Source: an uncultured Candidatus Babeliaceae bacterium
Lineage (GTDB): Bacteria; Babelota; Babeliae; Babelales; Babelaceae
Assembly (NCBI GenBank): GCA_963704655.1
Contig: OY969927.1
Location: 704,001 to 768,000, forward strand
Reading direction: 5' to 3'
DNA: 64,000 bases
Shown: positions 25,010 to 63,960 of the stretch, one piece after another
Layout: every line of letters starts with the position of its first letter
Numbering within the stretch: position 1 is the first letter of the stretch
Program-made: the position numbers and the translations under genes
The notes under the pieces: model-generated
Told to the model about the DNA's origin: nothing
Seen by the model: the letters and a program-made list of their open reading frames with translations, nothing else
Databases searched by the model: none

Positions 25010-25023
25010 GATTTTTACTACGT

Positions 25024-25077: not shown

Positions 25078-25482
25078 AGTGATTAAGGTGACCAATAAGC
25101 CAGATTCTGTTACACCCAATTTCTTGGGCATATGGCAACCATTTCTCTGAGCGATACACCCGCATAATAATTCTACTACGCTCTTTCGAGCTTCGAAGAA
25201 CAGGCCGGAACGAATACCGTATATGCTGCTTGATCTTGCTCCAGGTAGGGTTTGCCGCCCTCAGCTAGTCACCTAACTGAGCCGTGCGCTCTTACCGCAC
25301 ATTTTCACCCTTACAAGCGCCTAAGCGCGAGCGGTCTTGTCTCTGTGGCACTTTCCATGATTTACATCTTCTGCAGCTTTTCAACCGTAGATACCATCTT
25401 CGTTTGGAGTCTGGACTTTCCTCATTACGCCATAGCTCAATGAGCGACGGCAAACGCGATTGCCTAGGCTACCTTAACCACC
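25078..25482 (-). ncRNA. rnpB: RNase P RNA
   Basis: Minus strand GAGGAAAGTCC, GAAAGTGCCACAGA, GGCAAACCC..CCTGGAGCAAG, ACAGAATCTGGCTTA; P1 pairing GGTTAAGGTAGCC/GGTCACCTTAATC. Confidence 0.95.
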
Positions 25483-26726: not shown

Positions 26727-27915
26727 AAAAATTTCTACCTATTTAACTATTACAGTAAGCGTGTTCATGCTTTTAAGCGCCTGCAGAAACAAAAAAGTAA
26801 AATTAACCATTCAAGCACCTCAAGCTATGCCGGAATTTTTTGATATGCGCCCAACGACAGAACATATTTCATATCTGTATGCTCCGGGCATGATGAACAC
26901 CGAGCTTGGCATGGGTAGATATTGCCCAGAATTTACGGCCTCTACCGGTGAAAAAGTCACGTGGAGATCGGGCGGACAGGTTATCGGCCAACCACACAGC
27001 GCGGTGGTATTTCCAGAGATCGATCTCAGAAAACCAGATTATTTCACAATAAATCCGATTATGATGCTTATTAATGGCATGCGCCAAGATCTTGCACCTT
27101 TGGCTTTACGCTTTATGAAAGATGGCCTTGATTTTACCGTTATTGATAATCCAGATTCACCATTATCAATAGCAAATTATAGCTTCAATTTTGGCAAGGC
27201 AAACTTAGGCCAAAAAAACGACATTAAAACATTACATAAAGCCTATAACAATCATATAGAACGATACCCAAATACCGGCGTTATTATGTATGGCGATTCG
27301 CGCGGCGCAGCAACTATTTTTAATTTTATCGCGCTCCATAAGCCACAACAGGTAAAAGCTGCAGTTCTAGACGGTATTTTTGACAATATCCCGCACACGG
27401 TGAAACATTTTGCGTATACCGATAAACGCGCATGTGAAGAAGACAGACTCTACAGCATCGTACGCTTTATGATGGGAAGCTACAAACATGATGGCATTAA
27501 TCAACGTGAATGCGCAGAGATTATTGCAGATGATATCCCGCTTTTAATGGTAATATCACTCAAAGACGGCCTTGTGGCACCACAATCTGCCTTTTATTTA
27601 TATAACAGACTCCGTGACCGTGGCCACCAAAAAATTCATTTACTTGTCTTAAAAAGAGCATTGCACCCAGCGTATATGATCACTGACGCACAGGATAAAA
27701 AAGTCTATGAAACAGTTGTGCACGCATTTTACAAAAAGTATAACTTGCCGCACAATACTGCACTGGCTTTAGAGGGACAAAAAGACTTTGATGCTACCCA
27801 GCCAACAGCAGAGTATCTTCAAGTTACCTATAATTTGCCAACTTGTGCATTATGCGATGCAACTCAGCCAGAAAAAGTAAACGGCAAAAAGATTAAAAGA
27901 ACCATAAAAAAATAA
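26719..27915 (+). CDS. alpha/beta-hydrolase lipoprotein
   Basis: Lipobox LLSAC; GDSRGA nucleophile elbow; start at MHKK overlapping the upstream stop. Confidence 0.75.
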   Translation: MHKKISTYLTITVSVFMLLSACRNKKVKLTIQAPQAMPEFFDMRPTTEHISYLYAPGMMNTELGMGRYCPEFTASTGEKVTWRSGGQVIGQPHSAVVFPEIDLRKPDYFTINPIMMLINGMRQDLAPLALRFMKDGLDFTVIDNPDSPLSIANYSFNFGKANLGQKNDIKTLHKAYNNHIERYPNTGVIMYGDSRGAATIFNFIALHKPQQVKAAVLDGIFDNIPHTVKHFAYTDKRACEEDRLYSIVRFMMGSYKHDGINQRECAEIIADDIPLLMVISLKDGLVAPQSAFYLYNRLRDRGHQKIHLLVLKRALHPAYMITDAQDKKVYETVVHAFYKKYNLPHNTALALEGQKDFDATQPTAEYLQVTYNLPTCALCDATQPEKVNGKKIKRTIKK

Positions 27916-27930
27916 ATCTAAAGGGACATT

Positions 27931-28503
27931 ATGAATTTCAAATATTTTTTTGCATTATCTTTTTTCGTTTTACCTCAAGCAGTAACACTTGAAATAGAAA
28001 AAACAGATATCACAGAAGAATTCTGTTGCGTAACTCAAACACCAGATACAATCTGCGCTCAACTTCAAGTATTTCTTCAAATAAGTCGTTTCACTGACAA
28101 CAAAAAAATCTTCAAACAGGAAGTCCAAATTAAACGTAAAAATGATCAAAAAGAAATTGGTACTATATCCTTTGAGCAACAAAAATTCGAGAAAACAGAT
28201 CCCGACTATCCCGACTATATCCTTAAAATACGCGAGCTTGAGGTCGAACCTGGATCTCAAAAACAAGGCTATGGCAGTAAATTGTTAAATTATACTCTTT
28301 CTCAATATTGTGGCTCGACATGCGATGGTGCATATTTAGTCGCCCATGCTTTTAGGGCACCTGAAAGTCAAAGAATAGTGGAACTTGAAAAACTAAAAAA
28401 ATTCTACAAAAAACACGGTGGCGAAGAACTCCCTGTACCTTCACGCGAAATACCTAGAGATGACCCAACAAGGGCTAAATTTGCATTTAAAGAAAAAAAA
28501 TAA
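27931..28503 (+). CDS. GNAT acetyltransferase with signal peptide (7/7)
   Basis: DITEEFCCVTQTPDTIC; SQKQGYGSKLL; LKKFYKKHGG. Confidence 0.75.
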   Translation: MNFKYFFALSFFVLPQAVTLEIEKTDITEEFCCVTQTPDTICAQLQVFLQISRFTDNKKIFKQEVQIKRKNDQKEIGTISFEQQKFEKTDPDYPDYILKIRELEVEPGSQKQGYGSKLLNYTLSQYCGSTCDGAYLVAHAFRAPESQRIVELEKLKKFYKKHGGEELPVPSREIPRDDPTRAKFAFKEKK

Positions 28504-42923: not shown

Positions 42924-42986
42924 CGCTAATCCCTCGATCCAGCTTCCGACTACGCCGAGGCTTCGACGGACAGGCAGGATGCACTG
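42924..42986 (-). repeat. family A unit carrying a 30-nt family B insert (42945-42974)
   Basis: Minus strand CAGTGCATCCTG[CCTGTCCGTCGAAGCCTCGGCGTAGTCGGA]AGCTGGATCGAGGGATTAGCG. Confidence 0.85.
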
Positions 42987-42992
42987 AACTGG

Positions 42993-43043
42993 CCTGCCAT
43001 CTGTAGCTTGCCAAGCCGGAAGGCCTGGATAAGCGAAAGATGG
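42993..43043 (+). repeat. family B repeat abutting the tRNA 3' end
   Basis: CCTG-CCATCT-GTAG-CTT-[hairpin]-AAG-CGAA-AGATGG. Confidence 0.7.
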
Positions 43044-43132
43044 AGGAGAGAGGGGGATTCGAACCCCCGATTCCTTGTAACAGGAATAACCGCTTTCGAG
43101 ACGGCCGCTTTCAACCACTCAGCCATCTCTCC
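43041..43132 (-). tRNA. tRNA-Ser(CGA)
   Basis: GGAGAGATGGCTGAGTGG...GCCGT-CTCGAAA-GCGGT, long variable arm, GTTCGAATC, TCTCTCC-T-CCA. Confidence 0.95.
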
Positions 43133-43251
43133 ATTGCATCAAAACGCTGCATAACGTAATACACTCTAGAATACCCGATGTATTATTTTTTTAAAGTGAC
43201 GCCTGATTTTTTTCATGGTAATATCTAACAACCATAAAAAGGGGAAATCGC

Positions 43252-44769
43252 ATGAAACCCATATCTGTTCAGATGTATATCATAGTTTTTATAGGATTTT
43301 TTGGTATGAAAGAAAGTTTCTCAGCTCAACAAATAAATTTACCCAATACAAGCATACAGGCAGTTGTTCTTGCTGCAGGCAAATCAACCCGTTTTGCCAT
43401 GGGAAGTTCAAAGTTGGCATTCCCATTAAGTGGGCAACCAATGGTACTTTATCCTTTATCAATTCTTGAATCACTTTCAATCCCAACAATTGTCGTAACA
43501 GGCTATCAGCAAGAACTCATTAAACAGATTATTACCGAAAAAACAAAGTTAACTCCTCTTTTTGTTGAACAGACAATTCAAAAAGGTACTGGCCATGCAG
43601 TTGCATGCACTAAAGCGTCATGGCAAGCAGATCATATTCTCATTATCAACGGCGATATGCCCCTTATTACCACTGAACTTATTGCACAGTTGATACATGA
43701 ACACGTTGTTACTCATGCAACTATTTCGTTTGTTATCGCACCATGTAATGAACAGCCAAATGGTTATGGAAAAGTAATTCGTGCAGACAATAGCGTACAA
43801 ATTATCGAAGCACGGGATTTTAAAGGAACTGCACAAGAAGGCCGTTTTATTAATGCAGGCATTTATATAATAAACACAAATTTTTTAAGTGCTGAAATCG
43901 AAAAACTTGCACTTCATGAAAATTCACAAGAATGGTACGTCACCGATATTATAGCAGCAGCAAGTGATACAGGCCATCGTGTACATACCCTTGAAACAGA
44001 TTTTGACACTATTCGCGGCATTAACACCATCAGCGAATTAGCAACGGCAGAAAAAATTATTCGTGAACGTATCATTCATGAATGGATGAAAAAAGGCGTC
44101 TATTTTGAACAACCAGAGACAACCATTATTGAGCAATCGGTAACCATTGGGGTTGGCACGCGCATCGGCGCAGGCGTACATTTATTACAAAATACACGCA
44201 TAGGCGCTCGCTGCACCATTGGCAACTATAGCTCGATATCTAAGAGTATTTTGGCCGATCAAGTGACTGTTTTACCTCACTGTGTTATTACCGATTCAGA
44301 AATTTATGATCATGCAAGCGTTGGCCCATTTGCCCACTTACGTAATGTACACTCGCTTCACCAAAACGCCTGCATTGGCAACTTTGTTGAAGTAAGTAAT
44401 AGCACTATCGGCGCAGGCTCCAAGGCAAAACATCTTTCATATATCGGCAATGCAAACATTGCAGAGCAGGTCAACATCGGCGCTGGAACAATAACCTGCA
44501 ATTATGACGGCTTTCAAAAGCATGTCACTACCATAGAAAAAAATGTAAAAATCGGTAGCAACAATTCACTTGTTGCGCCCGTTACTATCGGTCATGATGC
44601 TATAACCGGCGCAGGCTCTGTGATAACCAGCGATGTACCACCCTTTGCACTTGGCATTGCACGTGCACACCAAGTTAATAAAGAGCATTATGCACAACGC
44701 CTTAACGAATCACGATCATTTCTTGGTGCAATAAAAGCAGATACACCACAGTCGCACAATGAAAAATAA
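43252..44769 (+). CDS. glmU: bifunctional UDP-GlcNAc pyrophosphorylase/acetyltransferase
   Basis: LAAGKSTR, GTGHAV, GPFAHLR, GNFVE, HLSYIG, TCNYDG; N-terminal extension. Confidence 0.95.
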   Translation: MKPISVQMYIIVFIGFFGMKESFSAQQINLPNTSIQAVVLAAGKSTRFAMGSSKLAFPLSGQPMVLYPLSILESLSIPTIVVTGYQQELIKQIITEKTKLTPLFVEQTIQKGTGHAVACTKASWQADHILIINGDMPLITTELIAQLIHEHVVTHATISFVIAPCNEQPNGYGKVIRADNSVQIIEARDFKGTAQEGRFINAGIYIINTNFLSAEIEKLALHENSQEWYVTDIIAAASDTGHRVHTLETDFDTIRGINTISELATAEKIIRERIIHEWMKKGVYFEQPETTIIEQSVTIGVGTRIGAGVHLLQNTRIGARCTIGNYSSISKSILADQVTVLPHCVITDSEIYDHASVGPFAHLRNVHSLHQNACIGNFVEVSNSTIGAGSKAKHLSYIGNANIAEQVNIGAGTITCNYDGFQKHVTTIEKNVKIGSNNSLVAPVTIGHDAITGAGSVITSDVPPFALGIARAHQVNKEHYAQRLNESRSFLGAIKADTPQSHNEK

Positions 44770-44795
44770 AATTGTCTTTATACACACAACTTACG

Positions 44796-44831
44796 GCCGC
44801 TCATCCTGAGCTCGTCGAAGGGTTAAGCGGC
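44796..44831 (+). repeat. family A repeat, single
   Basis: GCCGCTCATCCTGAGCTCGTCGAAGGGTTAAGCGGC. Confidence 0.9.
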
Positions 44832-44834
44832 ATT

Positions 44835-46070
44835 ATGATAAAATTCATTCACACAGCAGATATCCATTTCGGGATGGAAAATTATGGCAAGATCGACCCA
44901 AAAACGGGTATCCATTCACGCCTAATCGATTTTCAAAAAGCATTGCATGAATGCATCGACCGAGCGATAGCTGAAGATGTAGATTTTTTTATGTTTTCTG
45001 GTGATGCCTACAAAACACCAAACCCGTCACCAACGCATCAGAGGCTTTTGAGCGAATGCTTTTTTAGATTATTTAAGCATAATATTCCTATCGTTATGGT
45101 AATAGGCAATCACGACCATCCACTGACATTTGGTAAATCACACGCACTTGAAATATTTGGGCAACTGCCACTTGAAGGGTTTCATGTTATCAGCAAGCCA
45201 GAAAATATTTTACTGCAAACAAAAAATGGGCCCGTTCAGATTACGGGCATTCCGTGGCCGACGCGCGCACAAGTGAGTTTATCACATGAGCACCAAAGCA
45301 GAACAGCAGCACAACTTACTGAACTTATCAGCAATGGCATTGCAGATATTATAAGAAACTGCGCAGAGAAACTTAATCCAGAAATTCCAGCAATTTTAGC
45401 CGGACATTTAACCGTCAGCTCAGGGATATTTTCAGGGTCTGAAAAGCGTGCCGTATATGGCAATGACCCTGTTTTATTACCGTCACAACTTGCGATAGAA
45501 CCCTATGAATATGTTGCATTGGGCCATTTACACCGGTACCAAAATTTAAACCCAAATGCGCATCCGGCAATTGTTTATTCTGGCTCTATAGAGCGCATAG
45601 ATTTTGGTGAACGCAAAGAAGAAAAAGGGTTTTGCTTAGTAACTATTCATGAAAAAAATAATACAACACATGAATTTATCAAAGTCACTACGCGCCCATT
45701 TATACAAATCGAAATCACCCTTAACGATGACTCAAGTCACACAGAACAGATATTGGCTGAGCTGCGTAAACACCCTATTGCCAATACTGTGCTTAAGATC
45801 GTCTACACACTTCCAGCACATATTAAAGACCGTGTTGATGCACATGTCATTCATAATGCCTGTGAATCTGCACATTATATTGTAGGCATATTCCCGATTC
45901 GCCCTATAATAATTAAAGAATCACGCGCTGCACTTAAAGTTGATATGAATCTGCAAGAGCTTATGCAAAGTTACTGTTCAACAAAGCCTGAATATGCGCC
46001 GCTACAAGACGATATGATCAAAAAAGCACTTGAACTTGCCCATGAGCTTGAACAAGAAGAACATAATTAA
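44835..46070 (+). CDS. sbcD: SbcD/Mre11 nuclease
   Basis: HTADIHFG, GD, GNHD, ALGHLH, YSGSIERIDFGE. Confidence 0.9.
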   Translation: MIKFIHTADIHFGMENYGKIDPKTGIHSRLIDFQKALHECIDRAIAEDVDFFMFSGDAYKTPNPSPTHQRLLSECFFRLFKHNIPIVMVIGNHDHPLTFGKSHALEIFGQLPLEGFHVISKPENILLQTKNGPVQITGIPWPTRAQVSLSHEHQSRTAAQLTELISNGIADIIRNCAEKLNPEIPAILAGHLTVSSGIFSGSEKRAVYGNDPVLLPSQLAIEPYEYVALGHLHRYQNLNPNAHPAIVYSGSIERIDFGERKEEKGFCLVTIHEKNNTTHEFIKVTTRPFIQIEITLNDDSSHTEQILAELRKHPIANTVLKIVYTLPAHIKDRVDAHVIHNACESAHYIVGIFPIRPIIIKESRAALKVDMNLQELMQSYCSTKPEYAPLQDDMIKKALELAHELEQEEHN

Positions 46071-46094
46071 ATATGTTCATTAAGCCGATTATCT

Positions 46095-46616
46095 TTAAAC
46101 CAAATCAGGAGCGTTTTGTTGACGACCCTCTAGATATTCTTCAAGAGAACCACCCAAAATCTGGAACCCCAAAAGTGCGCCACCCTTCAATAACATCATC
46201 GAAGCCTTGGCCGCATCTTCTGGCGAGGATATTCCGATAATCCCATTTGCCATGTGAGAAGTTAAGATTCCCCATTCAAGCCCTGCTAAAAAATAGATAT
46301 TAAAGAGTTTATCGTTTTTATACTGTAGTCTTGCAGGTGTTCCGAAGCGCTCACGCCAGTACTTATCTTTTATTGAGAAAGCCAAACACACTGCAAGAGG
46401 CGTAATAACTACCGAAGATGCTGGTGATTCGCCCCTTTCAACTCTTGTACAACCAAATGCAGCGCTTCCACATGCAATACCCCATGATAATCCGTACCCT
46501 TTAATCGACTCCATTTTTGAATTGACTCTATCTATTTCTGCGATTTCTGCACAAAAAGCTTGCATTGTGACATGAGCGATAATAATGAGCACTAAAGATT
46601 TTAAACATATTTTCAT
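46095..46616 (-). CDS. hypothetical membrane protein
   Basis: 173-aa ORF, signal peptide and TM segments. Confidence 0.55.
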   Translation of the reverse strand: MKICLKSLVLIIIAHVTMQAFCAEIAEIDRVNSKMESIKGYGLSWGIACGSAAFGCTRVERGESPASSVVITPLAVCLAFSIKDKYWRERFGTPARLQYKNDKLFNIYFLAGLEWGILTSHMANGIIGISSPEDAAKASMMLLKGGALLGFQILGGSLEEYLEGRQQNAPDLV

Positions 46617-46713
46617 GCGATAAACCTATAATTTAATATAAAAAAACTTACATTAAATTATATCTTTAATGTACGCCATGGCAAGGTAACAACAAAAACA
46701 TTCTAGATCTAAT

Positions 46714-47481
46714 TTACTCGCAAGCATTAACAGGCAACTGTAATTTTTTATCTTTCAGTGATAAACAAATAGATCGTTTTTTATTAAAATCATCATCATT
46801 TCCGATAAGAAGACTTGGAAGCAATACCATCAAGGTGGGAGCTTTTATCACAAAAGCTGAAAGAAGATCATCGCTATTTACTCGACCGGAAGAAGCAGCC
46901 GTTTTAAGTGCAAAATGTGTTAGAGCCGATAACCCAACACCTACGCAAAATGACGAAGTTAAGAAACTATTTCTTTTAGGCAAATCGTCAAGAACAATAT
47001 TTTGCGCACTAAGTTTTTCTCTTAATGAACGCTCTAGTTGTTGTAATTGTATATACTTATTTTTTTGATCAACCATGCACTTTCGTAACTGCAATGTAAT
47101 AAAAATTGCAGAAGCCAGATCTCTAACCGTATCGGCATCCAAAAGATCAGCCCTGTCTTTTACTGCTACATATTTAAATAAAATCGGCACCCACACCCCA
47201 AAAGTAGCGCCATGAAGAACCATCTTATTCACACCAATTTCACGCCGCTCTAAAGCAATTGTGTGGCATGCACGAATATCACGTTCTTGTTCTTCATTAA
47301 GATCCTGCATCGCGTTTTGTTTTCTTTCAAAAAGAACTTTATTTTCAAAAGCACTATTCACCAGCCTATTATATTCAAGAATCTTACATTCTCTTACAGC
47401 CACTTGGTTATCTTTATTAAGAGCAGATAGAGCTACGGTAAGGCAAAGAGCTAATGATAGTATAAATACTTTACTTTTCAT
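46714..47481 (-). CDS. hypothetical membrane protein
   Basis: 255-aa ORF, signal peptide, coiled and TM segments. Confidence 0.55.
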   Translation of the reverse strand: MKSKVFILSLALCLTVALSALNKDNQVAVRECKILEYNRLVNSAFENKVLFERKQNAMQDLNEEQERDIRACHTIALERREIGVNKMVLHGATFGVWVPILFKYVAVKDRADLLDADTVRDLASAIFITLQLRKCMVDQKNKYIQLQQLERSLREKLSAQNIVLDDLPKRNSFLTSSFCVGVGLSALTHFALKTAASSGRVNSDDLLSAFVIKAPTLMVLLPSLLIGNDDDFNKKRSICLSLKDKKLQLPVNACE

Positions 47482-47499
47482 AAGGGTCCCTAATATGTG

Positions 47500-47799
47500 T
47501 TATTTTTGTTTTTTTCGTTGTAAAGATAATCTTCTATTATCAAGATTTTTTTGATAGAGCGCTAAAACCACCCCTGAAATAGCACTCAAACTAAATGATA
47601 TGATTGCAACATCATCAAAACCGATATTATACGTTCGCAGCGCTCCAACAGCAAGCGTTGCAGCTGAAAATGCTAAGCCTACTCTGGCTCTTTTTACTTG
47701 ACGGTCTATATCATGATAGCTTGAATCAAACCCATAGATTGAAACTGAAAAGAGTACTAATAGGTACAGCAGCAATCTATTTTTCACTATAAAACCCAA
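47500..47799 (-). CDS. hypothetical membrane protein
   Basis: 99-aa ORF, hydrophobic; start uncertain. Confidence 0.45.
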   Translation of the reverse strand: MGFIVKNRLLLYLLVLFSVSIYGFDSSYHDIDRQVKRARVGLAFSAATLAVGALRTYNIGFDDVAIISFSLSAISGVVLALYQKNLDNRRLSLQRKKQK

Positions 47800-47860
47800 A
47801 TAATAAAACTTTTTTTACACCATAATAGTATAATTAAGTTTAAGGATTCTTCAAAACAGT

Positions 47861-48739
47861 TCAAATCATTTCATTTGATTCAAGCACTTTTGCATCTTCT
47901 GGATGTGTAAAACGAATAGTAGCCTGCGATAATAAGAGTGAGTAATAGGCTTCAAAGACCTCTTTAAGGCGTTCTTGGCGCATTTTTGTTACTATCTCCA
48001 TATAACAGTCATCAAACGGCATAACTTGCGCAGGTGTTTTTTTGATCAAACGAGTGATCTCAAAACCACCATCAATGGCTTCAGTAAAGACGATATCACG
48101 CTCTTTATGAGTTGTAAGCGCTTTGCGGTCATCTGCAATTTCAGACTCTTTAAGCTCAAATGGCTCATCAAACTGTACATCTTTATCAAGATTAATAGTT
48201 TTAAGATACTCAGAAAGTTTTTTATTACCTAACTGTTCCTGAGAAATAAAAGCGGTAGCAATAGTATACGTAGCTTCAACTTGAGGTGGATTTTCTTTAT
48301 AACGCTCTTCTGCCTGTGCTCGAGAAACGATCATACGCTTGTCTGATTTCACACGAAATTCAACTACTTGCTCAATCATTTGGCGGGCACGTAGATATTC
48401 AAGAGCCTCTGCATAGGTGTAACCGGCTTCTCTAAAAAGATCTTCTACCGCTTTACGTGAGAGCCTGTTCTGTTTTTGAATATTTTCAATATACTTTTCA
48501 GCTTCTTGCTGCGTGACAATAATTTTATGATATAACGCATCAAGCTGCATCAGTTTATTTAAAATCACTTCACGCAATGTTTGCATGTGCCCATCAAGAG
48601 CTGGACGAATATCAGAGGCTAAAATAGCAACGGTTCCCATTTCATGATAAATAATTACCACAATTTCGTTAACCAGTTGCATACGCGCTGGCAGCGAGAA
48701 TGCTATAAAACATGCAAAAAACTTGAGAAATTTATTCAT
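47861..48739 (-). CDS. SurA-like periplasmic chaperone
   Basis: Signal peptide; VNEIVVII...ILASDI, IENIQKQNRLS helical SurA N-domain pattern. Confidence 0.6.
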   Translation of the reverse strand: MNKFLKFFACFIAFSLPARMQLVNEIVVIIYHEMGTVAILASDIRPALDGHMQTLREVILNKLMQLDALYHKIIVTQQEAEKYIENIQKQNRLSRKAVEDLFREAGYTYAEALEYLRARQMIEQVVEFRVKSDKRMIVSRAQAEERYKENPPQVEATYTIATAFISQEQLGNKKLSEYLKTINLDKDVQFDEPFELKESEIADDRKALTTHKERDIVFTEAIDGGFEITRLIKKTPAQVMPFDDCYMEIVTKMRQERLKEVFEAYYSLLLSQATIRFTHPEDAKVLESNEMI

Positions 48740-48761
48740 ACAACTACAGCCCTGAGTATAT

Positions 48762-48798
48762 AAAAAAAAGCGGGAACATATTAATAATATGTTCCCGC
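48762..48798 (-). terminator. rho-independent terminator
   Basis: 13-bp stem GCGGGAACATATT/AATATGTTCCCGC with T8 on the minus strand. Confidence 0.8.
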
Positions 48799-48835
48799 AT
48801 AGTATACGTTACTTAGCGCTTGTTTTCAAGTACGG

Positions 48836-48921
48836 CCGCTCCCTCGATACATTCTACTTCGTAGAACACTCGGGATGCACGGATTATGGCCGCTCATCCT
48901 GAGCATGTCGAAGGGTTAGCG
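48836..48921. repeat. family A doublet (long-hairpin variant plus short variant)
   Basis: CCGCTCCCTCGATACA-TTCTACTTCGTAGAA-CACTCGGGATGCACGG ... CCGCTCATCCTGAGCATGTCGAAGGGTTAGCG. Confidence 0.85.
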
Positions 48922-48940
48922 AGAACTAATTACCCTTGAA

Positions 48941-49984
48941 CTACGCTTTAAGTTGTTTTGGCGCAACAACTGCTTCTTGCACAGGCATTTCTTGCGCAGG
49001 TGCTGACTGAACGTCACTTTTTACCAGTTGCATAATGTTATCGCGATGAACAACTGCACCGTATTTCTGTTTTAATTCATCCATAGTTTTGGTAACTGCT
49101 TTTCCAAGCTCATTACGAATTAAGAATGATTTAACGGCTTGCTGAACTTCTGGATCACTATATGGTTTGAAGGTATCTTTTTGGATTGCAGTTGCTTTAA
49201 TAACCGCAAACTTACCGTTAGCAAGTTTTACTACTTCAACATGTGGTACCGAAGTATAACCCATTACTTTGCTGCGAATATGTTCGTCAACTTCCATAGA
49301 ACGTGGGCTTACTAAACCTAAATCTTTAACTTTACGTTGACCATCTTTTGCAACTTTTGCAAAATCCTGTTTTTGTGCACTTGCTGCAAGTGATTTTGCT
49401 TCAGATTCTTTTCCAGCTTCGATCATCTGAACAGAAACACCGCCAACTTTATCAATAAACGGTGCACGTTTAAAGATTGCTACACGGTCACGATTTTCTT
49501 CGTAATATTTCTGAGCAACTGCATCGGTAACTTCTTGCTCAATTTTTTTGTATAAATCAGACTGGAAGATACTGTTTTTAAGTTGAGTTTCAACCGCTTC
49601 ATGTGCTTGTTTTGCAGCCATTTTATATTCTTCAGATTCTAAAAGGCCTGCATCTTTAACGTAGTGGCTCACTAATAACTCAGCAAGCATTGCATCAGCA
49701 AACTGGTCATAGAACGCCTGTTGTTGGTCTGCTGGAAGCCCTGAAAGTGCTTGTTGAATATCAGGACGCGCCATACAAAGTTGGCTAAATTTATTTTCAA
49801 AATCACGTTGTGTTAATGCTGGTTTACCATCAAGCGAGATACAACACGGTGAACCATCGGTGCCATGATCGTGCCCACTTGTGCATGTTGTGCATGAGTG
49901 TGAAAACCATGATTTCCAATCACATGCTGGGAGCATCATCAATGCACTTACCAGAAAAACTATACTTAAAAATCTTTTTGTCAT
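48941..49984 (-). CDS. PrsA/PpiC-like foldase lipoprotein
   Basis: Lipobox LPAC; YYEEN, FAKVAK..DLG parvulin-like segment. Confidence 0.65.
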   Translation of the reverse strand: MTKRFLSIVFLVSALMMLPACDWKSWFSHSCTTCTSGHDHGTDGSPCCISLDGKPALTQRDFENKFSQLCMARPDIQQALSGLPADQQQAFYDQFADAMLAELLVSHYVKDAGLLESEEYKMAAKQAHEAVETQLKNSIFQSDLYKKIEQEVTDAVAQKYYEENRDRVAIFKRAPFIDKVGGVSVQMIEAGKESEAKSLAASAQKQDFAKVAKDGQRKVKDLGLVSPRSMEVDEHIRSKVMGYTSVPHVEVVKLANGKFAVIKATAIQKDTFKPYSDPEVQQAVKSFLIRNELGKAVTKTMDELKQKYGAVVHRDNIMQLVKSDVQSAPAQEMPVQEAVVAPKQLKA

Positions 49985-50006
49985 ACTTGTCCTTTAAATT
50001 TTAAGG

Positions 50007-50066
50007 CCTGCCCGCCATAGCCTTTTATATTAACAACTTAAGAATAAATGCGAGGCGACGGCTGGG
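50007..50066 (+). repeat. family B repeat with expanded AT-rich loop
   Basis: CCTG-CCCGCC-ATAG-CCT-[~29 nt]-AGG-CGAC-GGCTGGG. Confidence 0.65.
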
Positions 50067-50244
50067 TTATATTACCAATTGCCACTGTGTAGGTTACCAT
50101 AGGGAATAAATATTTACAAAAAAATGCTCTTTATAAACTCAATCTCATTTTTCTTGAAATTTTCTTATAAATAAGATTATTTTATTAAAAACCTGTATTA
50201 AGAATCTTCAGCATATCTTACGGCAGCGGCCATGAAAGAATTTT

Positions 50245-51201
50245 ATGAAAAAAAACAAATTTATAGTTAAACAGCTATTTTACTCAACTCTCCTTTTTAT
50301 CCCATTTTCTTGCTCATATAGTCTTTTTGAAGGCGCTCTAGAAGATAAAAATGCTCAAGGGTATGTAGCCATCAAATTTGCATCAGCGGAATGGGGCGAT
50401 CCCAAGCAATATGAAAATGCTGTGTGGCAAAATGTAACTATTCCAACAGAAGTACTTAAAGAAGCATACAACGTACCATTAAATGGATATAGTAAAGTAA
50501 AAATTACTTTACCAAAAAGCACATCTAACCCCACTGGAGAATATTCAGTTCAATACATGACAACGCTTGAAAAACCAAAGGCTGCCTATATGAGTCATTC
50601 TGAGGGGTTAACAACCATTGTGCAAAAAGGTTGGATGAGCGATACAAAATTATACTTTTCAACTCTATTTTTTGATACAAAAAAAGATTTCGATGAGTTC
50701 TTTCAAAATTTAATAAACAAAACTAAAAAAGATCCTACAAAATATATCGCAGTAAAACCGGCTGATGCTCAGTGGGGCGACGAAATAAAAAATGAAAATG
50801 AAATATTAAGTATGGAGATACAAAGACAAATATTGGAATCTGCGTACAAAGTAAAATACAGTGGTTTTTCGCATCATAGAGAAGAATCTCCAAGAGGTTG
50901 GTTAGGCCAGCCTTCAAAAAAATCAACAATACTCGTCCTGGAGACCCTCGAAACACCTAAAACTACCAACATATTTGATCCATATGCCGAAATAGAAACA
51001 ACTATTTTCATTAATAATAAAGAACTAAAATACACAACTCGCTTTTTCGATAATTATCAAGATTTACAGCAGTTTTATAAAAACCCTCCAAAAGAAACTC
51101 AAAAGAAAGAAAGTGTAGATATTAAAGCTTTAACAAAGTTGTTCAACGATTTCACAAAAAACATAAGTGTTCTTTATATACAAACACGTTATTTAAAATA
51201 A
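50245..51201 (+). CDS. hypothetical secreted protein with an internal domain duplication
   Basis: YVAIKFASAEWGD / YIAVKPADAQWGD; TLEKPK / TLETPK; STLFFD / TTRFFD. Confidence 0.65.
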   Translation: MKKNKFIVKQLFYSTLLFIPFSCSYSLFEGALEDKNAQGYVAIKFASAEWGDPKQYENAVWQNVTIPTEVLKEAYNVPLNGYSKVKITLPKSTSNPTGEYSVQYMTTLEKPKAAYMSHSEGLTTIVQKGWMSDTKLYFSTLFFDTKKDFDEFFQNLINKTKKDPTKYIAVKPADAQWGDEIKNENEILSMEIQRQILESAYKVKYSGFSHHREESPRGWLGQPSKKSTILVLETLETPKTTNIFDPYAEIETTIFINNKELKYTTRFFDNYQDLQQFYKNPPKETQKKESVDIKALTKLFNDFTKNISVLYIQTRYLK

Positions 51202-51840
51202 CTAATTGGTAACCTTGCAGACTACTAAAAGTTCAACTGAAGCGGCACCGTTTTTATATAATTCGCGCGCGGCGGCGGCTGCCGTTGCGCCCGTTGTATA
51301 TAAATCGTCAATTAAGAGTATTTTTTTATTATGTAAAGAAAAAGCACACGTAAATGCATCTTGAAGATTCTCTTTTCGCTCGGGCGCAGAGAGTGTTGAT
51401 TGAAAAGCCGTATTTTTGGTTCGTTTTAAAAGTGGCATTACCGGTTTATGCAAAACCCGTGCAATTTTTTGGGCTAATATTTCTGCTTGATTAAATCCAC
51501 GCCAGATTTTCCGTTGCCAATGCAGTGGAATCGGCACAATATAATCACAGGATAATGTTTGATTTTTAACATACTCAGAAAGCAAAAAAGCCATTTGGTC
51601 TATCGGTATCCGCTGGCTATTTAATTTTGCCTGAATTAACTTTTCCATAGGCTTTTGATACGCCGTAAAGGCATGTACGGTTATGTGGCGTGATGCTGTT
51701 ATAGAAATAGTTTGTGAAAATATTTTTGGTAATGCATCTAAACATTCAGTGCACAACACCGTGTGATGTGATAATAATAGTTCACACCCTACGCAATAGG
51801 GCGGGGATAGTATGTTTTTAAAAATGGTGAGTATGCGCAT
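51202..51840 (-). CDS. comF: ComF family protein
   Basis: CxxC...CxxC, PIPLHWQR..RGFNQA, LLIDDLYTTGAT. Confidence 0.9.
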   Translation of the reverse strand: MRILTIFKNILSPPYCVGCELLLSHHTVLCTECLDALPKIFSQTISITASRHITVHAFTAYQKPMEKLIQAKLNSQRIPIDQMAFLLSEYVKNQTLSCDYIVPIPLHWQRKIWRGFNQAEILAQKIARVLHKPVMPLLKRTKNTAFQSTLSAPERKENLQDAFTCAFSLHNKKILLIDDLYTTGATAAAAARELYKNGAASVELLVVCKVTN

Positions 51841-51851
51841 GTGCCGGTATA

Positions 51852-52313
51852 TTACTCTTGTAATGTGGCAATAATGCATATCACGCCGACAACAATTGCT
51901 GCATCTGCAATATTAAAAACGGGTAACGCGTAATGGTTAACATGAAAAACAATAAAATCTATAACACCATTATACAATGCGCGGTCGATTAAATTGCCCG
52001 TTGCGCCAGCAATAACCAGTAACTCTGGGTAAATCGAAAAACCCTTAATAAAACGAAAGACGGTGTATCCAACAAGTAAAACTATCAGCAGTGAAATGGC
52101 AACAGAAAGCGCAATAAAAAAAGGCTGTGTTGCATGGTGAAAAATGCCCCATGAAATGCCCCGGTTGGTAAGTACTTCAAGAGAAACATACTGATTTAAC
52201 ACAATCTCTTTGGTTGCTGTCTTTAATGCCCACTGCTTACTAAAAAAATCTATAGCAAGGACAAAGGTGAAAAAAGAAAGCGCGCCAAAAACTGAAAAGA
52301 TTTTTTTCATCAT
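51852..52313 (-). CDS. lspA: lipoprotein signal peptidase
   Basis: NRGISWG, GATGNLIDR, GVIDF, FNIAD. Confidence 0.93.
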   Translation of the reverse strand: MMKKIFSVFGALSFFTFVLAIDFFSKQWALKTATKEIVLNQYVSLEVLTNRGISWGIFHHATQPFFIALSVAISLLIVLLVGYTVFRFIKGFSIYPELLVIAGATGNLIDRALYNGVIDFIVFHVNHYALPVFNIADAAIVVGVICIIATLQE

Positions 52314-54682
52314 CGAACAGTTACTCCTAAGGCATGAACAGCTGCAGTAACCGCAGCGCGTAACTGGTCAATCTCTTGTTTAGAAAAAGTTTTTTCTTCA
52401 TCAACTGCTTTATAACGTAACGTTACTGCACGCTCAGAAACCCATTCCGGTTTTTCAAAGTAATCAACCAACTGCACGTGATATATGCGTGCGTCTACCA
52501 CCGCTATTGCTTGCTCAATTGCATCAACTGAAACGGCAAATGGCACGAGTAAACTGATATCTGTAGTAACAGGCTGGTATGCTGAAAGCGGGGTGAATGT
52601 TACCAACTCTTTATGCGCTTGTAATAATACATCAAGTTCAATTTCAAAAATAAACGCATGGCCCGTAGTAAATGCACGCATGCTGTCTGGCCTTACACAA
52701 CCTGCATAGCCGATAACTTTATCATTAAAAACTAACTCTGCTGTTTGATGCGGATGATAGAACACAGCAAGGTCAGATTCAGGCTTTCTCCAAACTATTG
52801 GCAATGAAAGTAACTTAAAGATTTGAGAAACTTTTTCTTTATATTCATAAAAATTAAGCTCAGTTGCTTGATACCAAATACCTGCAAAAGATGATTGTTC
52901 AACTGGTTTATTATTAATTTTTTTCCAAATATTATTTATCTCAAAAAATGCCATACGGTCATGTTCATAGACATTTTGTTCAATATTTTTAAAAAGATGT
53001 GGAATCAGTGACGAAACTAAGCTTGTCCAATGTTCTGAAACGGGGTTTGCAACAGCATAAGCCGTATCGGATAAAAGTTTACTCAAACCCACTTTTTCTA
53101 AAAATTGATTATCATAAAATGCATAGTTACTTACTTCATGCATGTTAAAACCAAATGCACACAGGCGCTTAAGCGCACGACGCATCATAATATAATCGGT
53201 AGAAAATGGCTTCATAACCCGCGAAGGCAATTGCATTGCAAGATTATTAAAGCCGATAAAACGCGCAATCTCTTCAACAATGTCCTCTGCGATAGTAATG
53301 TCTTTTGTTGCGCGAAAACTTGGCACGCTTATCGTGAACTCTGCACCAGTAGCAGTGTCTTTTTGTTGTACGCCAAAGCCCAACGCACTTAAGATAGTGT
53401 AAATATGATCTGCAGAAACATGAGTTCCAATACGATCAGAAACAAACGTCTGCGTAAAACGTATACTTTTTTCTTGAGGAACTTCACCAAGCGACATAAT
53501 TGCTTGCGCACTTTGATAGACTACATCATGGATATCTAAAAGATGTAAAAAGCGTGTTATAGCTTGCGTGTTATATAAAGGATCGAGTGATTTTTCAAAT
53601 CTTGTGGAAGACTCTGTACGGACCTTATGCTTAATTGATGATTTACGGATAGCTGCTGCAGCATATGATGCCGATTCAATAAAAAGCGCGGCTGTTTTTC
53701 TGGTTACACTAGAACCTTTACCGCCCATAATTCCTGCAAGACCTAAAATCTTTTGGCCATCACTGATAACCATATCAGTATCAACTAAGGTAATAGTTGC
53801 ACCATCAAGAAGTAATAACTTCTCACCCGAGGTTGCTTGCTCGACCTTAAGAACATCGCCTGTAATATATGCAGCATCAAATGCGTGCATTGGTTGGCCG
53901 ATATCATACATAACATAATTTGTAGTATCAACAATGCCATTTATAGGCTTTGCATCAATGGCACATAAGCGAAAGAGCATATCGGGAAATGAGGCAACAT
54001 AGGTGATTTTCGGGATACTTAAGCCTGCTATGCGTTTGCAATTTCGCTCCCCGATCACACTGAGCGAAGTCGAAGCGTTCTCCAAACCGATGGTGTTGCC
54101 TGCAACAGCGGGCGTGCTTTGGGTGAACGAGCGTATCGCTTTTTGAGCAAATATATACTCTTCTGGCAATAATTCTAAGCCATAAAGTGCTCCAACTTCA
54201 CGGGCAAAACCTCTGTGTCCCCATAAATCTGGTCTATGCGTTAATGCTTTGTTATCAAAAGTTAAAATATAGTCCCATGCAGGGATCGCGCTTTTCCAAG
54301 CGCCAGCTTTTTGTGCTTCAGGCACCCAGACAGCAGGAACAAGACCATCTTTTTCAGCATGCAGGTCACGCAGCGAAAGATAGGTAAACATATCGCCCTG
54401 CTTGAGTATCAAACAGCTGTCACCAACAGCCAGGTCTGTACGCGGGGGTAAGGTGATCTCTTTATGTAACTCGACAATTGAAAGCGTACAAGCGGTATCT
54501 TGTTTAATAACAGTACCTAAAAAAATCTTATCTAATGGATAGGTAATTTTTTCAACATGTTCTACTTCAGCAACAGTAGCTCCGATACGTTCAAAAAAGT
54601 TGCCCTTTTCAAACTCAGACTGAAACTCAGAAAATGGGTTTTTCTTAATATGACTAAACAACCAAGAAAGAGATAGCTTCAT
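52310..54682 (-). CDS. pheT: phenylalanyl-tRNA synthetase beta subunit
   Basis: HRPDLWGHRGFARE, GQPMHAFD, LAGIMGG, RFEK, EDIVEEIAR. Confidence 0.93.
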   Translation of the reverse strand: MKLSLSWLFSHIKKNPFSEFQSEFEKGNFFERIGATVAEVEHVEKITYPLDKIFLGTVIKQDTACTLSIVELHKEITLPPRTDLAVGDSCLILKQGDMFTYLSLRDLHAEKDGLVPAVWVPEAQKAGAWKSAIPAWDYILTFDNKALTHRPDLWGHRGFAREVGALYGLELLPEEYIFAQKAIRSFTQSTPAVAGNTIGLENASTSLSVIGERNCKRIAGLSIPKITYVASFPDMLFRLCAIDAKPINGIVDTTNYVMYDIGQPMHAFDAAYITGDVLKVEQATSGEKLLLLDGATITLVDTDMVISDGQKILGLAGIMGGKGSSVTRKTAALFIESASYAAAAIRKSSIKHKVRTESSTRFEKSLDPLYNTQAITRFLHLLDIHDVVYQSAQAIMSLGEVPQEKSIRFTQTFVSDRIGTHVSADHIYTILSALGFGVQQKDTATGAEFTISVPSFRATKDITIAEDIVEEIARFIGFNNLAMQLPSRVMKPFSTDYIMMRRALKRLCAFGFNMHEVSNYAFYDNQFLEKVGLSKLLSDTAYAVANPVSEHWTSLVSSLIPHLFKNIEQNVYEHDRMAFFEINNIWKKINNKPVEQSSFAGIWYQATELNFYEYKEKVSQIFKLLSLPIVWRKPESDLAVFYHPHQTAELVFNDKVIGYAGCVRPDSMRAFTTGHAFIFEIELDVLLQAHKELVTFTPLSAYQPVTTDISLLVPFAVSVDAIEQAIAVVDARIYHVQLVDYFEKPEWVSERAVTLRYKAVDEEKTFSKQEIDQLRAAVTAAVHALGVTVR
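54051..54078 (+). repeat. family A unit inside pheT
   Basis: CCGATCACACTGAGCGAAGTCGAAGCGT vs CCGCTCACACTGAGCGAAGTCGAAGTGT at 4659-4686 (26/28). Confidence 0.85.
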
Positions 54683-54716
54683 GTATTTACGACCTAACTT
54701 TAAAGAACTTAATAAT

Positions 54717-54786
54717 CCGCCCGCATGGATTCGACTACGCTCACCACGAGCGGACGCTCATCCTGAGCCTGTCGAAGGGTTAGCGG
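54717..54786. repeat. family A doublet
   Basis: CCGCCCGCATGGATTCGACTACGCTCACCACGAGCGG-ACGCTCATCCTGAGCCTGTCGAAGGGTTAGCGG. Confidence 0.9.
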
Positions 54787-54867
54787 GTCAATGAAAGTCT
54801 GCTATATATCTAGTAAAGTTTACGCAAAAATTGTAAAACGATCAATCTATGGTAAAATTATATCATT

Positions 54868-55782
54868 ATGAAAACTATACTACTTTATTACAAATATACC
54901 GATGTCGAATTTCCTGCGCAGCAAGTAAAACTTCAAAAAGAGCTCTGCGCACGCTTAGGTCTCAAGGGACGTATCATTATTGCTACTGAAGGAATTAATG
55001 GCACTGTTGCCGGAACCCAGGAAGCTTGTGATGCTTATATTGAGCACATGAACGCTCACCCACTTTTTTTTGGCATTGATTTTAAAATCAGCCAGTGTGA
55101 AGGCGAGCCGTTCCCCCGCATGCGAATTGTTGAAAAAGAAGAGATCACTCGCATGGGCAAAAGTCCCAAAGAAATCTCTTATAAAGATACTGGGACGCAT
55201 TTAACCCCACAACAAGCACATGACCTTATTGCCAACAATAAAGATCTACTTATCTTAGATGGCAGAAACGCTTACGAGGCTGCTATTGGTAAATTTGTAG
55301 GAGCCATTGTGCCTGATATTGAGACCTTTAGAGAATTTCCTGATTATATAGATAAAAACCAAGATATGTTTAAAGATAAAGAGGTCTTTATGTACTGCAC
55401 CGGCGGCATCCGCTGCGAGCGCGCAACTGCTTACTTAAAAAGTAAAGGTGTTGCAAAAGAAGTATATCACGTAACTGGTGGTATTGACCGTTATGCTCAG
55501 GCGTATCCTGACGGATACTTTAGGGGCAAAAATTATGTCTTTGATGGCCGCATAGCCGTTCCTGTTAATAACGATATTCTGAGTACCTGTGCACTTTGTT
55601 CACAAGCAGCTGACGATTATTACAACTGTGTCTATGCTGGCTGCAACAAACAGCTTATTATTTGCCCACCATGTGTACAAGAACATAATGCAACCTGTAG
55701 CGAAAAGTGTAAACAACTGATTTTAGATAACCCTGCACTTATGCGCATTATCCCGCACAAAACAGCAACATGCGCTCGCTAG
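54868..55782 (+). CDS. trhO: rhodanese-domain tRNA U34 hydroxylase family (TrhO/YceA)
   Basis: GRII.A.EGINGT, YCTGGIRCE, GKNYVFDGR. Confidence 0.88.
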   Translation: MKTILLYYKYTDVEFPAQQVKLQKELCARLGLKGRIIIATEGINGTVAGTQEACDAYIEHMNAHPLFFGIDFKISQCEGEPFPRMRIVEKEEITRMGKSPKEISYKDTGTHLTPQQAHDLIANNKDLLILDGRNAYEAAIGKFVGAIVPDIETFREFPDYIDKNQDMFKDKEVFMYCTGGIRCERATAYLKSKGVAKEVYHVTGGIDRYAQAYPDGYFRGKNYVFDGRIAVPVNNDILSTCALCSQAADDYYNCVYAGCNKQLIICPPCVQEHNATCSEKCKQLILDNPALMRIIPHKTATCAR

Positions 55783-56807
55783 AAAACCTGATTCAACAGA
55801 ACGCTCCACTGGCAGACAAAAACTGGTTTAAAACAGGCGGGCCTGCAGAGTTTTATGCAGAGCCACAAACACCACAAGAATTTGCTGCAGCTATTATATT
55901 CGCACGCGAACACAGTTTGCCTATTACATTATTAGGCGAAGGCGCTAACGTACTTATCAGCGATGCGGGAATTTCTGGGCTTGTTATTCGCCCCGCTTTA
56001 AAAGAAATTATATTCGAAACATGTTCAAACGCCGTGCACCCTGCCTGTCCGTCGAAGCCTTGGCGAAGTCGGAAGTGTTCACCGCAGGTGAATGTATCGA
56101 AGGGGCAGAATATCTGGGTTACAGCGCAGGCAGGCGTGAGTATGCATGAACTTATCGATGCTTGCTTAGCGCAAGGCGCATTAGGCTTAGAAGAATTTAG
56201 TGGGATACCCGGAACAGTTGGCGGGTCAGTTTTTATCAATATCCATTATTTTGAATTTTTATTAAGCAAGTTTATTACTCAAGCGACAGTTATTAACGCC
56301 ACAACCGGCGAGCTGCTTTCAGTTGACCATGCATGGTTTAATTTTAGTTATAACTATTCAATGTTACATGAAAATAATTACTATCTAGTAGATGCTACGT
56401 TTAAACTTAAACGTGCTGAATCGCCTTTAGATGTTGCGTTTGCGCAAGGGCGCAGAAAAGAGATTATTCGCCACAGAGCAGCTCGATACCCAAATGCGGG
56501 AACTTGTGGCAGTTTTTTTAGAAACTTTTATCCGCAAGAAGTTACGCTTGAAAGCTTAGGAAAAAAACTAATCTATGTTGCTTATTATTTAGATAAAATT
56601 GGTGTTAAAGGCGCACTTTCATGCGGCGGTGCAACGGTGTCTTACCAGCATGCAAATATGCTCGTTAACTCTGGCAATGCCTCCACTGCCGACTTAATAA
56701 CTCTTGCACGCACCATGCAAGAAAAAGTCCGTGATGCTTATGGCATTACGCCACAGCCGGAATGCAGATTATTAGGTTTTGAAAAATACCCATTACTATC
56801 CTATTAA
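55770..56807 (+). CDS. murB: UDP-N-acetylmuramate dehydrogenase, with a repeat-derived insert
   Basis: FKTGGPA, LGEGANVL, GIPGTVGG, GSFFRN, HANMLVN. Confidence 0.92.
   Translation: MRSLENLIQQNAPLADKNWFKTGGPAEFYAEPQTPQEFAAAIIFAREHSLPITLLGEGANVLISDAGISGLVIRPALKEIIFETCSNAVHPACPSKPWRSRKCSPQVNVSKGQNIWVTAQAGVSMHELIDACLAQGALGLEEFSGIPGTVGGSVFINIHYFEFLLSKFITQATVINATTGELLSVDHAWFNFSYNYSMLHENNYYLVDATFKLKRAESPLDVAFAQGRRKEIIRHRAARYPNAGTCGSFFRNFYPQEVTLESLGKKLIYVAYYLDKIGVKGALSCGGATVSYQHANMLVNSGNASTADLITLARTMQEKVRDAYGITPQPECRLLGFEKYPLLSY
56032..56103 (+). repeat. family A unit with a 30-nt family B insert (56044-56073), in frame in murB
   Basis: CCGTGCACCCTG[CCTGTCCGTCGAAGCCTTGGCGAAGTCGGA]AGTGTTCACCGCAGGTGAATGTATCGAAGG. 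Confidence 0.88.
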
Positions 56808-63067: not shown

Positions 63068-63552
63068 ACACTATTACGATAACGGTAAACACGAATATAA
63101 GAAAATGCTGAAACGGGGGTAGTTAATGCGTACTGTTCATATCCGTCTGTTATATACAGTGTTCCAGACTGTAACGTGCCATCAGGATGCGCACCTATCT
63201 TTTTATCTACAAAAGTAACCATTTGTGTAACAAGCTTTTGTGGTGAAGATGGCGGCCCATATACATCAGGTAATACCCCAAATCTAAAACCATCTTGCAA
63301 AGCATAACGACTGCCGTCATATATTAATGCTGAATTTACTTCATCAATAGTAATTTTTTGCTCTTTTTTTAAGCACGTTGCACGTGTTGCCGCAGTACGC
63401 AGCAACAGGCTCAACACAGCAACATCAGTAGCAAAAGAAGTGCCCTTAACGACATTATAACTTATAAATCCGATTGTAGAACAAACAAGTATTAACGTTA
63501 TTACCAGCATCAACTCAAACAGCATGAACCCTTGTCTGGCCATTCGAGCCAT
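63052..63552 (-). CDS. minor pilin / pseudopilin (FimT/GspH-like)
   Basis: RQG|FMLFELMLVI class III signal; ATG overlaps the GIY-YIG stop (TAATG). Confidence 0.75.
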   Translation of the reverse strand: MARMARQGFMLFELMLVITLILVCSTIGFISYNVVKGTSFATDVAVLSLLLRTAATRATCLKKEQKITIDEVNSALIYDGSRYALQDGFRFGVLPDVYGPPSSPQKLVTQMVTFVDKKIGAHPDGTLQSGTLYITDGYEQYALTTPVSAFSYIRVYRYRNSVWQSY

Positions 63553-63905
63553 TATTCGATTCCCTCTTGCGAAACTATGAAATCTGCATCGCAGCCGCTC
63601 GTGGTGAGCGTAGTCGAATCCATGCGGCAAGATTCTTCATTTTTGAATCCACCCCAACCATTACGTATTAATATCTCTTTTTTCTGACGCGTCCAGCGCT
63701 TTATTTTATGCTCTGCCACAAATGCCTCATCGCGTGTTTGAAATAACTCAAAATATTTTAATGTAACGGGTAGTCTATTTAATGTGTAACCCTTATACTT
63801 GCCTTCATTATGTTCGCATACCCTTTGTTCTAAATTATCTGTATGCCCAATATAATAAGAACCATCAGCACATTGAACGATATAAAAATAAAAACCTTCA
63901 TTCAT
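63552..63905 (-). CDS. small GIY-YIG nuclease (UPF0213/YhbQ-like)
   Basis: FYFYIVQCADGSYYIGHTDNLEQRVCEHN...YT...P...EA..AE..IKRW.R.KK; C-terminal tail reads through a repeat. Confidence 0.9.
   Translation of the reverse strand: MNEGFYFYIVQCADGSYYIGHTDNLEQRVCEHNEGKYKGYTLNRLPVTLKYFELFQTRDEAFVAEHKIKRWTRQKKEILIRNGWGGFKNEESCRMDSTTLTTSGCDADFIVSQEGIE
63594..63628 (+). repeat. family A repeat, left arm of a perfect 35-bp inverted pair
   Basis: GCCGCTCGTGGTGAGCGTAGTCGAATCCATGCGGC. Confidence 0.92.
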
Positions 63906-63925
63906 GATTTACCAAATTTTTTTAG

Positions 63926-63960
63926 GCCGCATGGATTCGACTACGCTCACCACGAGCGGC
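63926..63960 (-). repeat. family A repeat, right arm of a perfect 35-bp inverted pair
   Basis: Plus strand GCCGCATGGATTCGACTACGCTCACCACGAGCGGC, exact reverse complement of 63594-63628. Confidence 0.92.

Follow-up and report, generated by a model that had tools for sequence, protein, structure and literature searches.

The 64,000-nt stretch analysed here, referred to as the window, belongs to an uncultured Candidatus Babeliaceae bacterium (contig OY969927.1, positions 704,001 to 768,000) and contains two copies of a 30-nt element, B, each lodged within a unit of another dispersed hairpin repeat, family A. The first B unit, a CCTG tag followed by a 26-nt hairpin, is located at 56044..56073 on the plus strand (CCTGTCCGTCGAAGCCTTGGCGAAGTCGGA) within the open reading frame of murB (55770..56807, plus strand, 345 aa). 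It is identical to the copies at positions 9217 and 1221401 of the source genome, G000. The A unit that it splits is of the long form (GTGCACCCTG / AGTG-TTCACCGCAGGTGAA-TGTATCGAAGGGG), and the A+B composite at 56034..56105 (plus strand) is 72 nt long and stands in frame as 24 codons, translated as VHPACPSKPWRSRKCSPQVNVSKG. The second B unit, at 42945..42974 on the minus strand (CCTGTCCGTCGAAGCCTCGGCGTAGTCGGA), lies in the A unit at 42924..42984 of the same strand (GTGCATCCTG / AGCTGGATCGAGGGATTAGCG), which is intergenic, between tRNA-Ser and the next gene. Both B copies have GTGCA(C/T)CCTG on the left and AG on the right. An earlier note on this DNA (the original prediction) had described two 30-nt elements that are 28/30 identical and split A units between CCTG and AG, and the coordinates, the identity and the split were confirmed at both sites. 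The two hosts are, as had been claimed, different A sub-variants, since their 3' parts are unlike (AGTGTTCACCGCAGGTGAATGTATCGAAGGGG in the murB copy, AGCTGGATCGAGGGATTAGCG in the 42924 unit). A degenerate 30-nt pattern of B matched twice in the window, compared to 0.00 matches expected from 100 shuffles.

G000 is a single contig of 1,298,077 bases with 38% G+C and is 96% complete. The genome set comprised 261 genomes of the order from 145 genera, including 5 congeners; G000 to G004, G013 and the L-numbers are labels for the genomes and fetched loci that were compared. The copies of B in G000 were located by blastn-short and the A units were counted by regular expressions.

B is a discrete module that consists of a 4-nt tag (CCTG, or CGTG/CTTG) and a 26-nt imperfect hairpin with the core GWAGC...GCGWAG. 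Hairpins of the form stem-GWAGC-loop-GCGWAG-stem are preceded in G000 by CCTG, four bases upstream, in 23 cases and by AGTG in 8, and both words are outside the six commonest tags listed for the reversed-sequence control. The scans for the structure were unspecific (37 matches versus 61 in the reversed sequence, and 156 versus 131 in a second scan), leaving the tag distribution alone as informative. Since CCTG is found upstream of the 23 hairpins regardless of what precedes them, it is the tag of B itself and not a copy of the target. The doubled CCTG-CCTG, which the original prediction had read as a possible 4-nt duplication, is thus explained otherwise: wherever B stands, CCTG belongs to it, also in the precise RNase P RNA insert described below. 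The stem was analysed in 68 distinct 30-mers from G000 and the fetched loci, anchored only on the central CGWAGCYT..GCGNAG. The outer stem was paired in 90.8% of the cells, compared to 20-51% in slid controls, and 5 of the 6 outer pairs varied on both sides, which was matched by 0 of 500 shuffles. Beside the innermost stem pair there is usually a T.T mismatch, and mid-hairpin GWA lies opposite GWA; standard DNA energy rules therefore see little stability in B.

The host motif GTGCAYCCTG occurs 32 times in G000. The majority of these copies have the form ccGTGCAYCCTG-AGTG followed by a variable hairpin and TGTATCGAAGGR, called A-long. Since Y and R covary in A, YCCT pairs with AGGR. The A-short form, GCTCAYCCTGAGC-NTG-TCGAAGGGTTAGCG, is commoner, with 62 units counted versus 25 of A-long. 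Five G000 copies of the TCCGTC...GTCGGA hairpin with a CCTG tag split CCTG|AG of an A unit. Three of them, at 9217, 760044 (murB) and 1221401, have identical B sequences within unrelated outer flanks, and their host hairpin is TTCACCGCAGGTGAA in each case, but for a single change in the third. This shows that the composite multiplied as a unit. The fifth, at 999126, has an A-short-like host, and the loop of B holds an additional 37-nt piece. A B relative with a CGTG tag at 225485 is located at TCGA^AGG of an A-short unit. The A-long units at G000:C1:9190-9300, 374250-374340 and 736170-736260 are themselves nested within a larger palindrome (CATGGTTCGATACACC ... GGCACGGCACTCACCATG), and at 9207 three levels of nesting were seen.

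An uninterrupted A host that is letter-identical to the murB host was found at G000 474487, beside a nuclease gene. The filled and the empty host differ by exactly 30 nt, unambiguously and with no duplication. For the host of the 42924..42984 copy, no uninterrupted twin within 4 edits was present in G000. The original prediction had proposed two independent, site-specific insertions. What holds of this is that B is separate from A and nested in it at a fixed junction, that an empty twin exists at 474487 and that the same junction is filled in 13 other genomes across many A sub-variants. The independence of the two window copies was not demonstrated and, because three of the five G000 copies are one multiplied composite, it is plausible but unproven.

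The cleanest proof that a B-type unit inserts whole, tag included and without duplication, is the comparison of the RNase P RNA genes. In the window, the gene for this RNA (25080-25476, minus strand) has a B-type unit at 25171..25204 on the minus strand (CCTGTTCTTCGAAGCTCGAAAGAGCGTAGTAGAA), in the P15-17 region. The insert is precisely 34 nt with its CCTG tag and is preceded by CGG. It is present in G000, G003 and G004 and absent from the same spot in G001, G002 and G013. The empty site in G001 and G002 reads ..tttcgg|ttat.., whereas in G000 and G004 CCTGTTCTTC.AAGCTCG.AAGAGCGTAG.AGAA stands between the same bases, with nothing duplicated; the G003 version has a larger loop. The RNase P RNA genes of the genus (window 25080-25476 and L186-L190) are peppered with hairpin repeats at the tips of their helices. 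In G004, a reverse A-long unit lies in another helix besides the B-type unit, and in G001 inserts of the B type and of the tRNA-linked type are found at other places.

The spread of B was then determined in the order, allowing up to 3 mismatches. B was present in 68 of 261 genomes and in 45 of 145 genera, with no match for the reversed pattern, and in 0 of the 5 congeners. The exact 27-mer core occurs in at least 117 public contigs with labels that span several phyla, many of them Verrucomicrobiota, with Dependentiae/Babeliales also present. Around B in L040, L083 and L117, flanks of more than 100 nt are identical between G079, an unlabelled genome of the order, and public bins labelled Saccharimonadales and Coxiellaceae. 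This suggests mis-binning or shared mobile DNA, and the bin labels need care.

The flanks were analysed in 29 B copies, one per genome, across the order. The tag was CCTG in 17 and CGTG in 8 of them. The next two bases after B were AG in 20 of 29 copies, compared to an AG dinucleotide frequency of 0.053, and the four bases before B were CCTG in 7 and xCGA in 5-6. A pattern that includes the flanks, and hence selects for them, found 18 copies with exact CCTG|B|AG in 13 genomes other than G000. The A units that host them belong to many sub-variants of both the short and the long form. Examples are ATCCTG|B|AGCTTGTCGAAGGG, GTCCTG|B|AGCCTGACGAAGGAC and long units in which the central hairpin differs. 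TCGA^AGG, the second site, is occupied at 225485 in G000 and at four other loci, L050, L115, L137 and L139. Further hosts of B are other B units, tRNA-linked hairpins, where it occupies the loop, and hairpins resembling the NTS/SRM repeats of Ssn nucleases.

The original prediction had compared the CCTG flank to the targeting of IS200/IS605 elements, where an HUH (Y1) transposase of the IS200/IS605 or RAYT kind would place B 3' of CCTG. Such an enzyme would fit the lack of a target duplication, the tagged hairpin as in repetitive extragenic palindromes (REPs) and the CCTG left flank in 7 of 29 copies and in the 18 flank-selected ones. PF01797 (Y1), however, had 0 matches in G000, compared to matches in 6 of the 14 genomes used as controls. 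The bases to the left of B are variable (CCTG, xCGA, GGA, CGT, CGG), TCGA^AGG and other sites are also used, and B has a single hairpin and not two subterminal ones. Because there is no HUH transposase and no constant left flank, this mechanism is unlikely, and we regard it as hardly credible for B. A tetranucleotide can also not be the entire target: A-like units hold just 98 of the 429 CCTGAG hexamers in G000, yet all five B copies at CCTG^AG fall in A units.

This concentration in A units would also be expected if B were an old optional module. One or a few ancestral A+B composites would have multiplied and swapped arms with A units by recombination or gene conversion, and the site would reflect inheritance and homology, not targeting. 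The three G000 copies that are one composite fit this, and so do several composites of G098 that have host features in common but unlike B tags and cores, which looks like a joint divergence of host and B. In the orthologous comparisons, entire units were gained or lost, never B alone within A. On the other side, the same 26-nt core also occupies unrelated hosts, which are Verrucomicrobiota-labelled repeats, other B units and both tRNA-linked and NTS/SRM-like hairpins. B-type units are inserted by themselves in RNase P RNA, and the murB host has an exact twin that is empty. For conversion between the sub-variants, only some 10 nt of homology would be available to the left of B and 2-4 nt to its right. 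This is the main rival explanation; it accounts for there being three twins and no stepwise orthologs, but not for B in unrelated hosts, and we consider it possible but rather unlikely.

We lean towards B as a self-contained hairpin module that is copied whole and without target duplication, mostly into other hairpin repeats, with the A+B composites then multiplying as units. What the comparisons demonstrate is the modularity of B with its fixed junctions, covarying stem and wide distribution, and the spread of the composites. In the proposed mechanism, B would be copied whole into other sequences with no target duplication, and its favoured spots would be the two edges of the A apical loop, CCTG^AG and TCGA^AGG. 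The insertion may take place on single-stranded DNA at the unpaired edges of the loop. It might depend on a nuclease acting in trans, for which a mini GIY-YIG protein is the only candidate seen, or on copy-choice repair. A composite, once formed, would multiply as a unit and so give rise to the murB copy and its two twins.

Several results weigh against the copying of B as an independent module. No orthologous pair of A without B and A with B was found among the relatives compared, and no uninterrupted orthologous site was found in related genomes at murB, tRNA-Ser and a G250 locus. At these three places, the congeners are without the entire repeat block. Similarly, in genus g143 the relatives of an A+B unit are without the entire unit, so there is no ortholog with A only. 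Four public sequencing runs gave no B-less variant and no joint skipping B, with the strain present only as short low-depth contigs; these are identical to G000 over both window sites and are too short and shallow to bear on polymorphism. The near-invariance of B could reflect strong constraint instead of recent movement. The DNA folding energy of B was no better than that of shuffles (z = -0.3), and the energies of the composites were likewise no better than those of shuffles, with standard rules that ignore G.A pairs in both cases. The flanks showed no significant pairing with each other across B (49/82 versus 213/407, p = 0.17), so that an insertion always in a hairpin loop is not general for B; a simpler pairing test gave 32/139 versus 12-13 in the controls. 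In G000, a B-like copy at 806542-806571 has a CAAG tag and lies outside any A unit.

The link to an enzyme adds two further points of this kind. No GIY-YIG motif was detected by a motif regular expression within 1.5 kb of B at 30 loci. When the genomes were tallied by hand, mini GIY-YIG type 2 was found in 60 of 68 B-positive versus 103 of 193 B-negative genomes, and type 1 in 38 of 68 versus 60 of 193. Since the B-positive genomes are enriched about equally for both types, no enzyme is singled out for B.

The nuclease genes themselves are associated with family A. PF01541 was above the cut-off at 9 places in G000, in 8 open frames of 83-133 aa and one of 432 aa, and a tenth place was below the cut-off; NCBIfam had no family for the mini nucleases. 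At 474676, 482674, 488381, 375561 and 767678, the GIY-YIG genes are bracketed by inverted hairpin repeats of family A and its relatives, with A-long units around 474676 and A-short units around 482674 and 488381. In the window, a mini GIY-YIG (Ssn-like) nuclease is encoded at 63552..63908 on the minus strand, with perfect 35-nt inverted repeats of a third family at 63594-63628 and 63926-63960. The 3' end of this reading frame extends into one arm of the inverted repeat.

An arrangement of this kind could make B a homing-like parasite of a parasite. The A nuclease would cut single-stranded A at CCTG^AG, A units that bear B would be immune, and a cut empty A would be repaired from the B-bearing copies. 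We consider this improbable; if it were true, a 30-nt hairpin without a gene would ride on the cleavage site of the enzyme of another element. In a wider form, two nuclease-hairpin systems would invade the loops of each other, A with its Ssn-like enzymes and the tRNA-end B-type hairpins with a family of 80-aa GIY-YIG proteins. This family is present in 163 of 261 genomes, with the G000 member at G000:C1:231546-231785 (L001). Of the 26 genes of this family that were located (in loci L001 and L221-L250), 17 follow a tRNA gene, usually one for tRNA-Arg, at a distance of at most 400 nt, and B-type hairpins sit between the tRNA and the 80-aa gene. B-type motifs are found just upstream in 19 of the 26 genes, which may simply reflect the position after tRNA genes, where such hairpins occur anyway.

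All 39 tRNA genes of G000 encode CCA. Behind 19 of these genes comes a hairpin that opens with this CCA and stops ahead of a CAGG-type tag, which is complementary to the CCTG of B. In the window, tRNA-Ser(CGA) at 43041..43132 (minus strand) is abutted by a B-type hairpin at 42993..43043 (plus strand; CCTG-CCATCT-GTAGC...GCGAAAGATGG). The final bases of this hairpin are complementary to the CCA end of the tRNA, and its DNA fold has a z of -2.2. Downstream of this tRNA, G004 is without an entire 135-nt block including the hairpin, and G003 has another small hairpin. A further B-type unit at 50007..50066 (plus strand) has an AT-rich piece of about 31 nt in the apical loop. The original prediction had listed the units at 42993, 50007 and 25171-25204 as B relatives that start with CCTG, and they are real. 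In the hairpins at 50007-50066 and at G000:C1:231458-231520, the loop holds a long AT-rich piece that includes TATAAT-like words and stands directly upstream of a gene. These pieces may be promoters carried in the hairpin loop. Three tRNA-linked B-type hairpins (His, Pro and one Met) contain an A-short unit in their loop. The nesting is therefore reciprocal: small hairpin repeats invade one another in both directions.

The abundance of these hairpins at tRNA ends could mean that they are kept for an RNA or DNA function of their own, such as tRNA 3'-end processing, termination or transcript stability, with their presence in A incidental. The 19 of 39 tRNA genes with a hairpin at the encoded CCA, the covarying stem and the B-type unit that lengthens a helix of the RNase P RNA agree with such a function. 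The hairpin is, however, absent from congeners at the same tRNA-Ser and in RNase P RNA, and copies occur on either strand and within a coding region. At the Rfam gathering threshold only RNase P RNA and tRNA were matched, with no Rfam family for the B-type hairpins. A function of this kind as the reason for B in A appears very improbable to us.

An insert at this position of murB was found neither in the congeners G001-G003 nor in more distant relatives. In G004, a different repeat family (GCCGCTCGTGGTGAGCG..) occupies the same MurB loop (L012). Since another repeat stands at the same spot, this loop is a permissive insertion hot spot in an essential enzyme. Elsewhere in the window, the region 16100-28100 contains repeated blocks (families D1, D3, D4, D8, D10 and D11) and several small paralogues whose starts resemble signal peptides (MKKII..).

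In the literature, tagged hairpins, their presence in open reading frames and their insertion within other palindromes are already described in PMC3733652, and nuclease-linked hairpins in PMC11893778. No paper was found with the B core or A motif strings; the search covered articles, and related motifs are possibly listed in the supplements of PMC11893778, which were outside it. With the same scope, the tag and core of B, its conservation across phylum labels, the base-exact junctions in a nuclease-linked repeat and the reciprocal nesting were not found in print. A search on nested REP hairpin insertions gave nothing, and one on Dependentiae repeats gave one unrelated review.

The enzyme link of nuclease-linked hairpin repeats dates only from 2025. 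B, which is kept across several phylum labels and has a base-exact junction in A, offers an assayable substrate pair, A with and A without B, and is a natural marker for where hairpin elements are opened. Such modules are tolerated in frame in murB, within helices of RNase P RNA and, for half of the tRNA genes, at the CCA end.

Single-strand elements with hairpins are also known from the IS200/IS605 group and its gene-less derivatives. They insert beside a short target without duplicating it, and IS200/IS605 elements keep one target. B likewise leaves no target duplication, as seen from the filled and empty hosts and from the RNase P comparison. In contrast to these elements, neither an encoded Y1 transposase nor a constant left-flank target was found, and B is a single hairpin. 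IS200/IS605 elements are cited in the discussion of PMC11893778, a paper that also remarks on the IS-like layout of the Ssn systems and the parallel to REP/BIME.

Ssn nucleases are small single-domain GIY-YIG proteins whose genes are bracketed by inverted, oriented hairpin repeats (NTS/SRM) that are also scattered genome-wide (Chenal et al. 2025, PMC11893778). Here too, mini GIY-YIG genes are bracketed by inverted A units that are scattered in the genome, and by PF01541 the proteins are single-domain ones of about the 90-120 aa that define Ssn. The flanking repeats are those of family A and its relatives and not B (0 of 30 loci). Compared by eye, A and B are unlike the NTS consensus given in the paper (CGTCATTCCCGCG..GCGGGAATCYRG type; PMC11893778). 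The sections of the paper that were compared make no mention of a repeat nested in a repeat, which is a feature of the present system. Ssn nucleases cleave single-stranded DNA site-specifically near the repeat, and the nucleases described here are candidates for such an activity.

For REPs with GTAG or CGTC tags, some were reported to be inserted within longer palindromes in Anabaena variabilis, Thermomicrobium roseum and Halothiobacillus neapolitanus, and REPs inside open reading frames encode 20-30 residues (Di Nocera et al. 2013, PMC3733652). B resembles them in its short tag plus hairpin and, as a REP-type repeat, has a conserved 4-nt tag at one end of the hairpin and many dispersed copies. 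Its tag is neither GTAG nor CGTC but CCTG, CGTG or CTTG, and G000 has no RAYT. In addition, B is hosted by a repeat that is dispersed and nuclease-linked in its own right, at a junction that is exact to the base, and the nesting is reciprocal.

Rickettsia palindromic elements (RPEs) are hairpin repeats that interrupt housekeeping genes of a host-dependent bacterium without breaking the frame. At murB, too, an in-frame repeat of 24 codons was observed in a conserved protein gene that is without it in the relatives, and B is free of stop codons in all six frames. RPEs are also mentioned in PMC3733652. The units described here are shorter and modular, and their resemblance to RPEs is one of layout.

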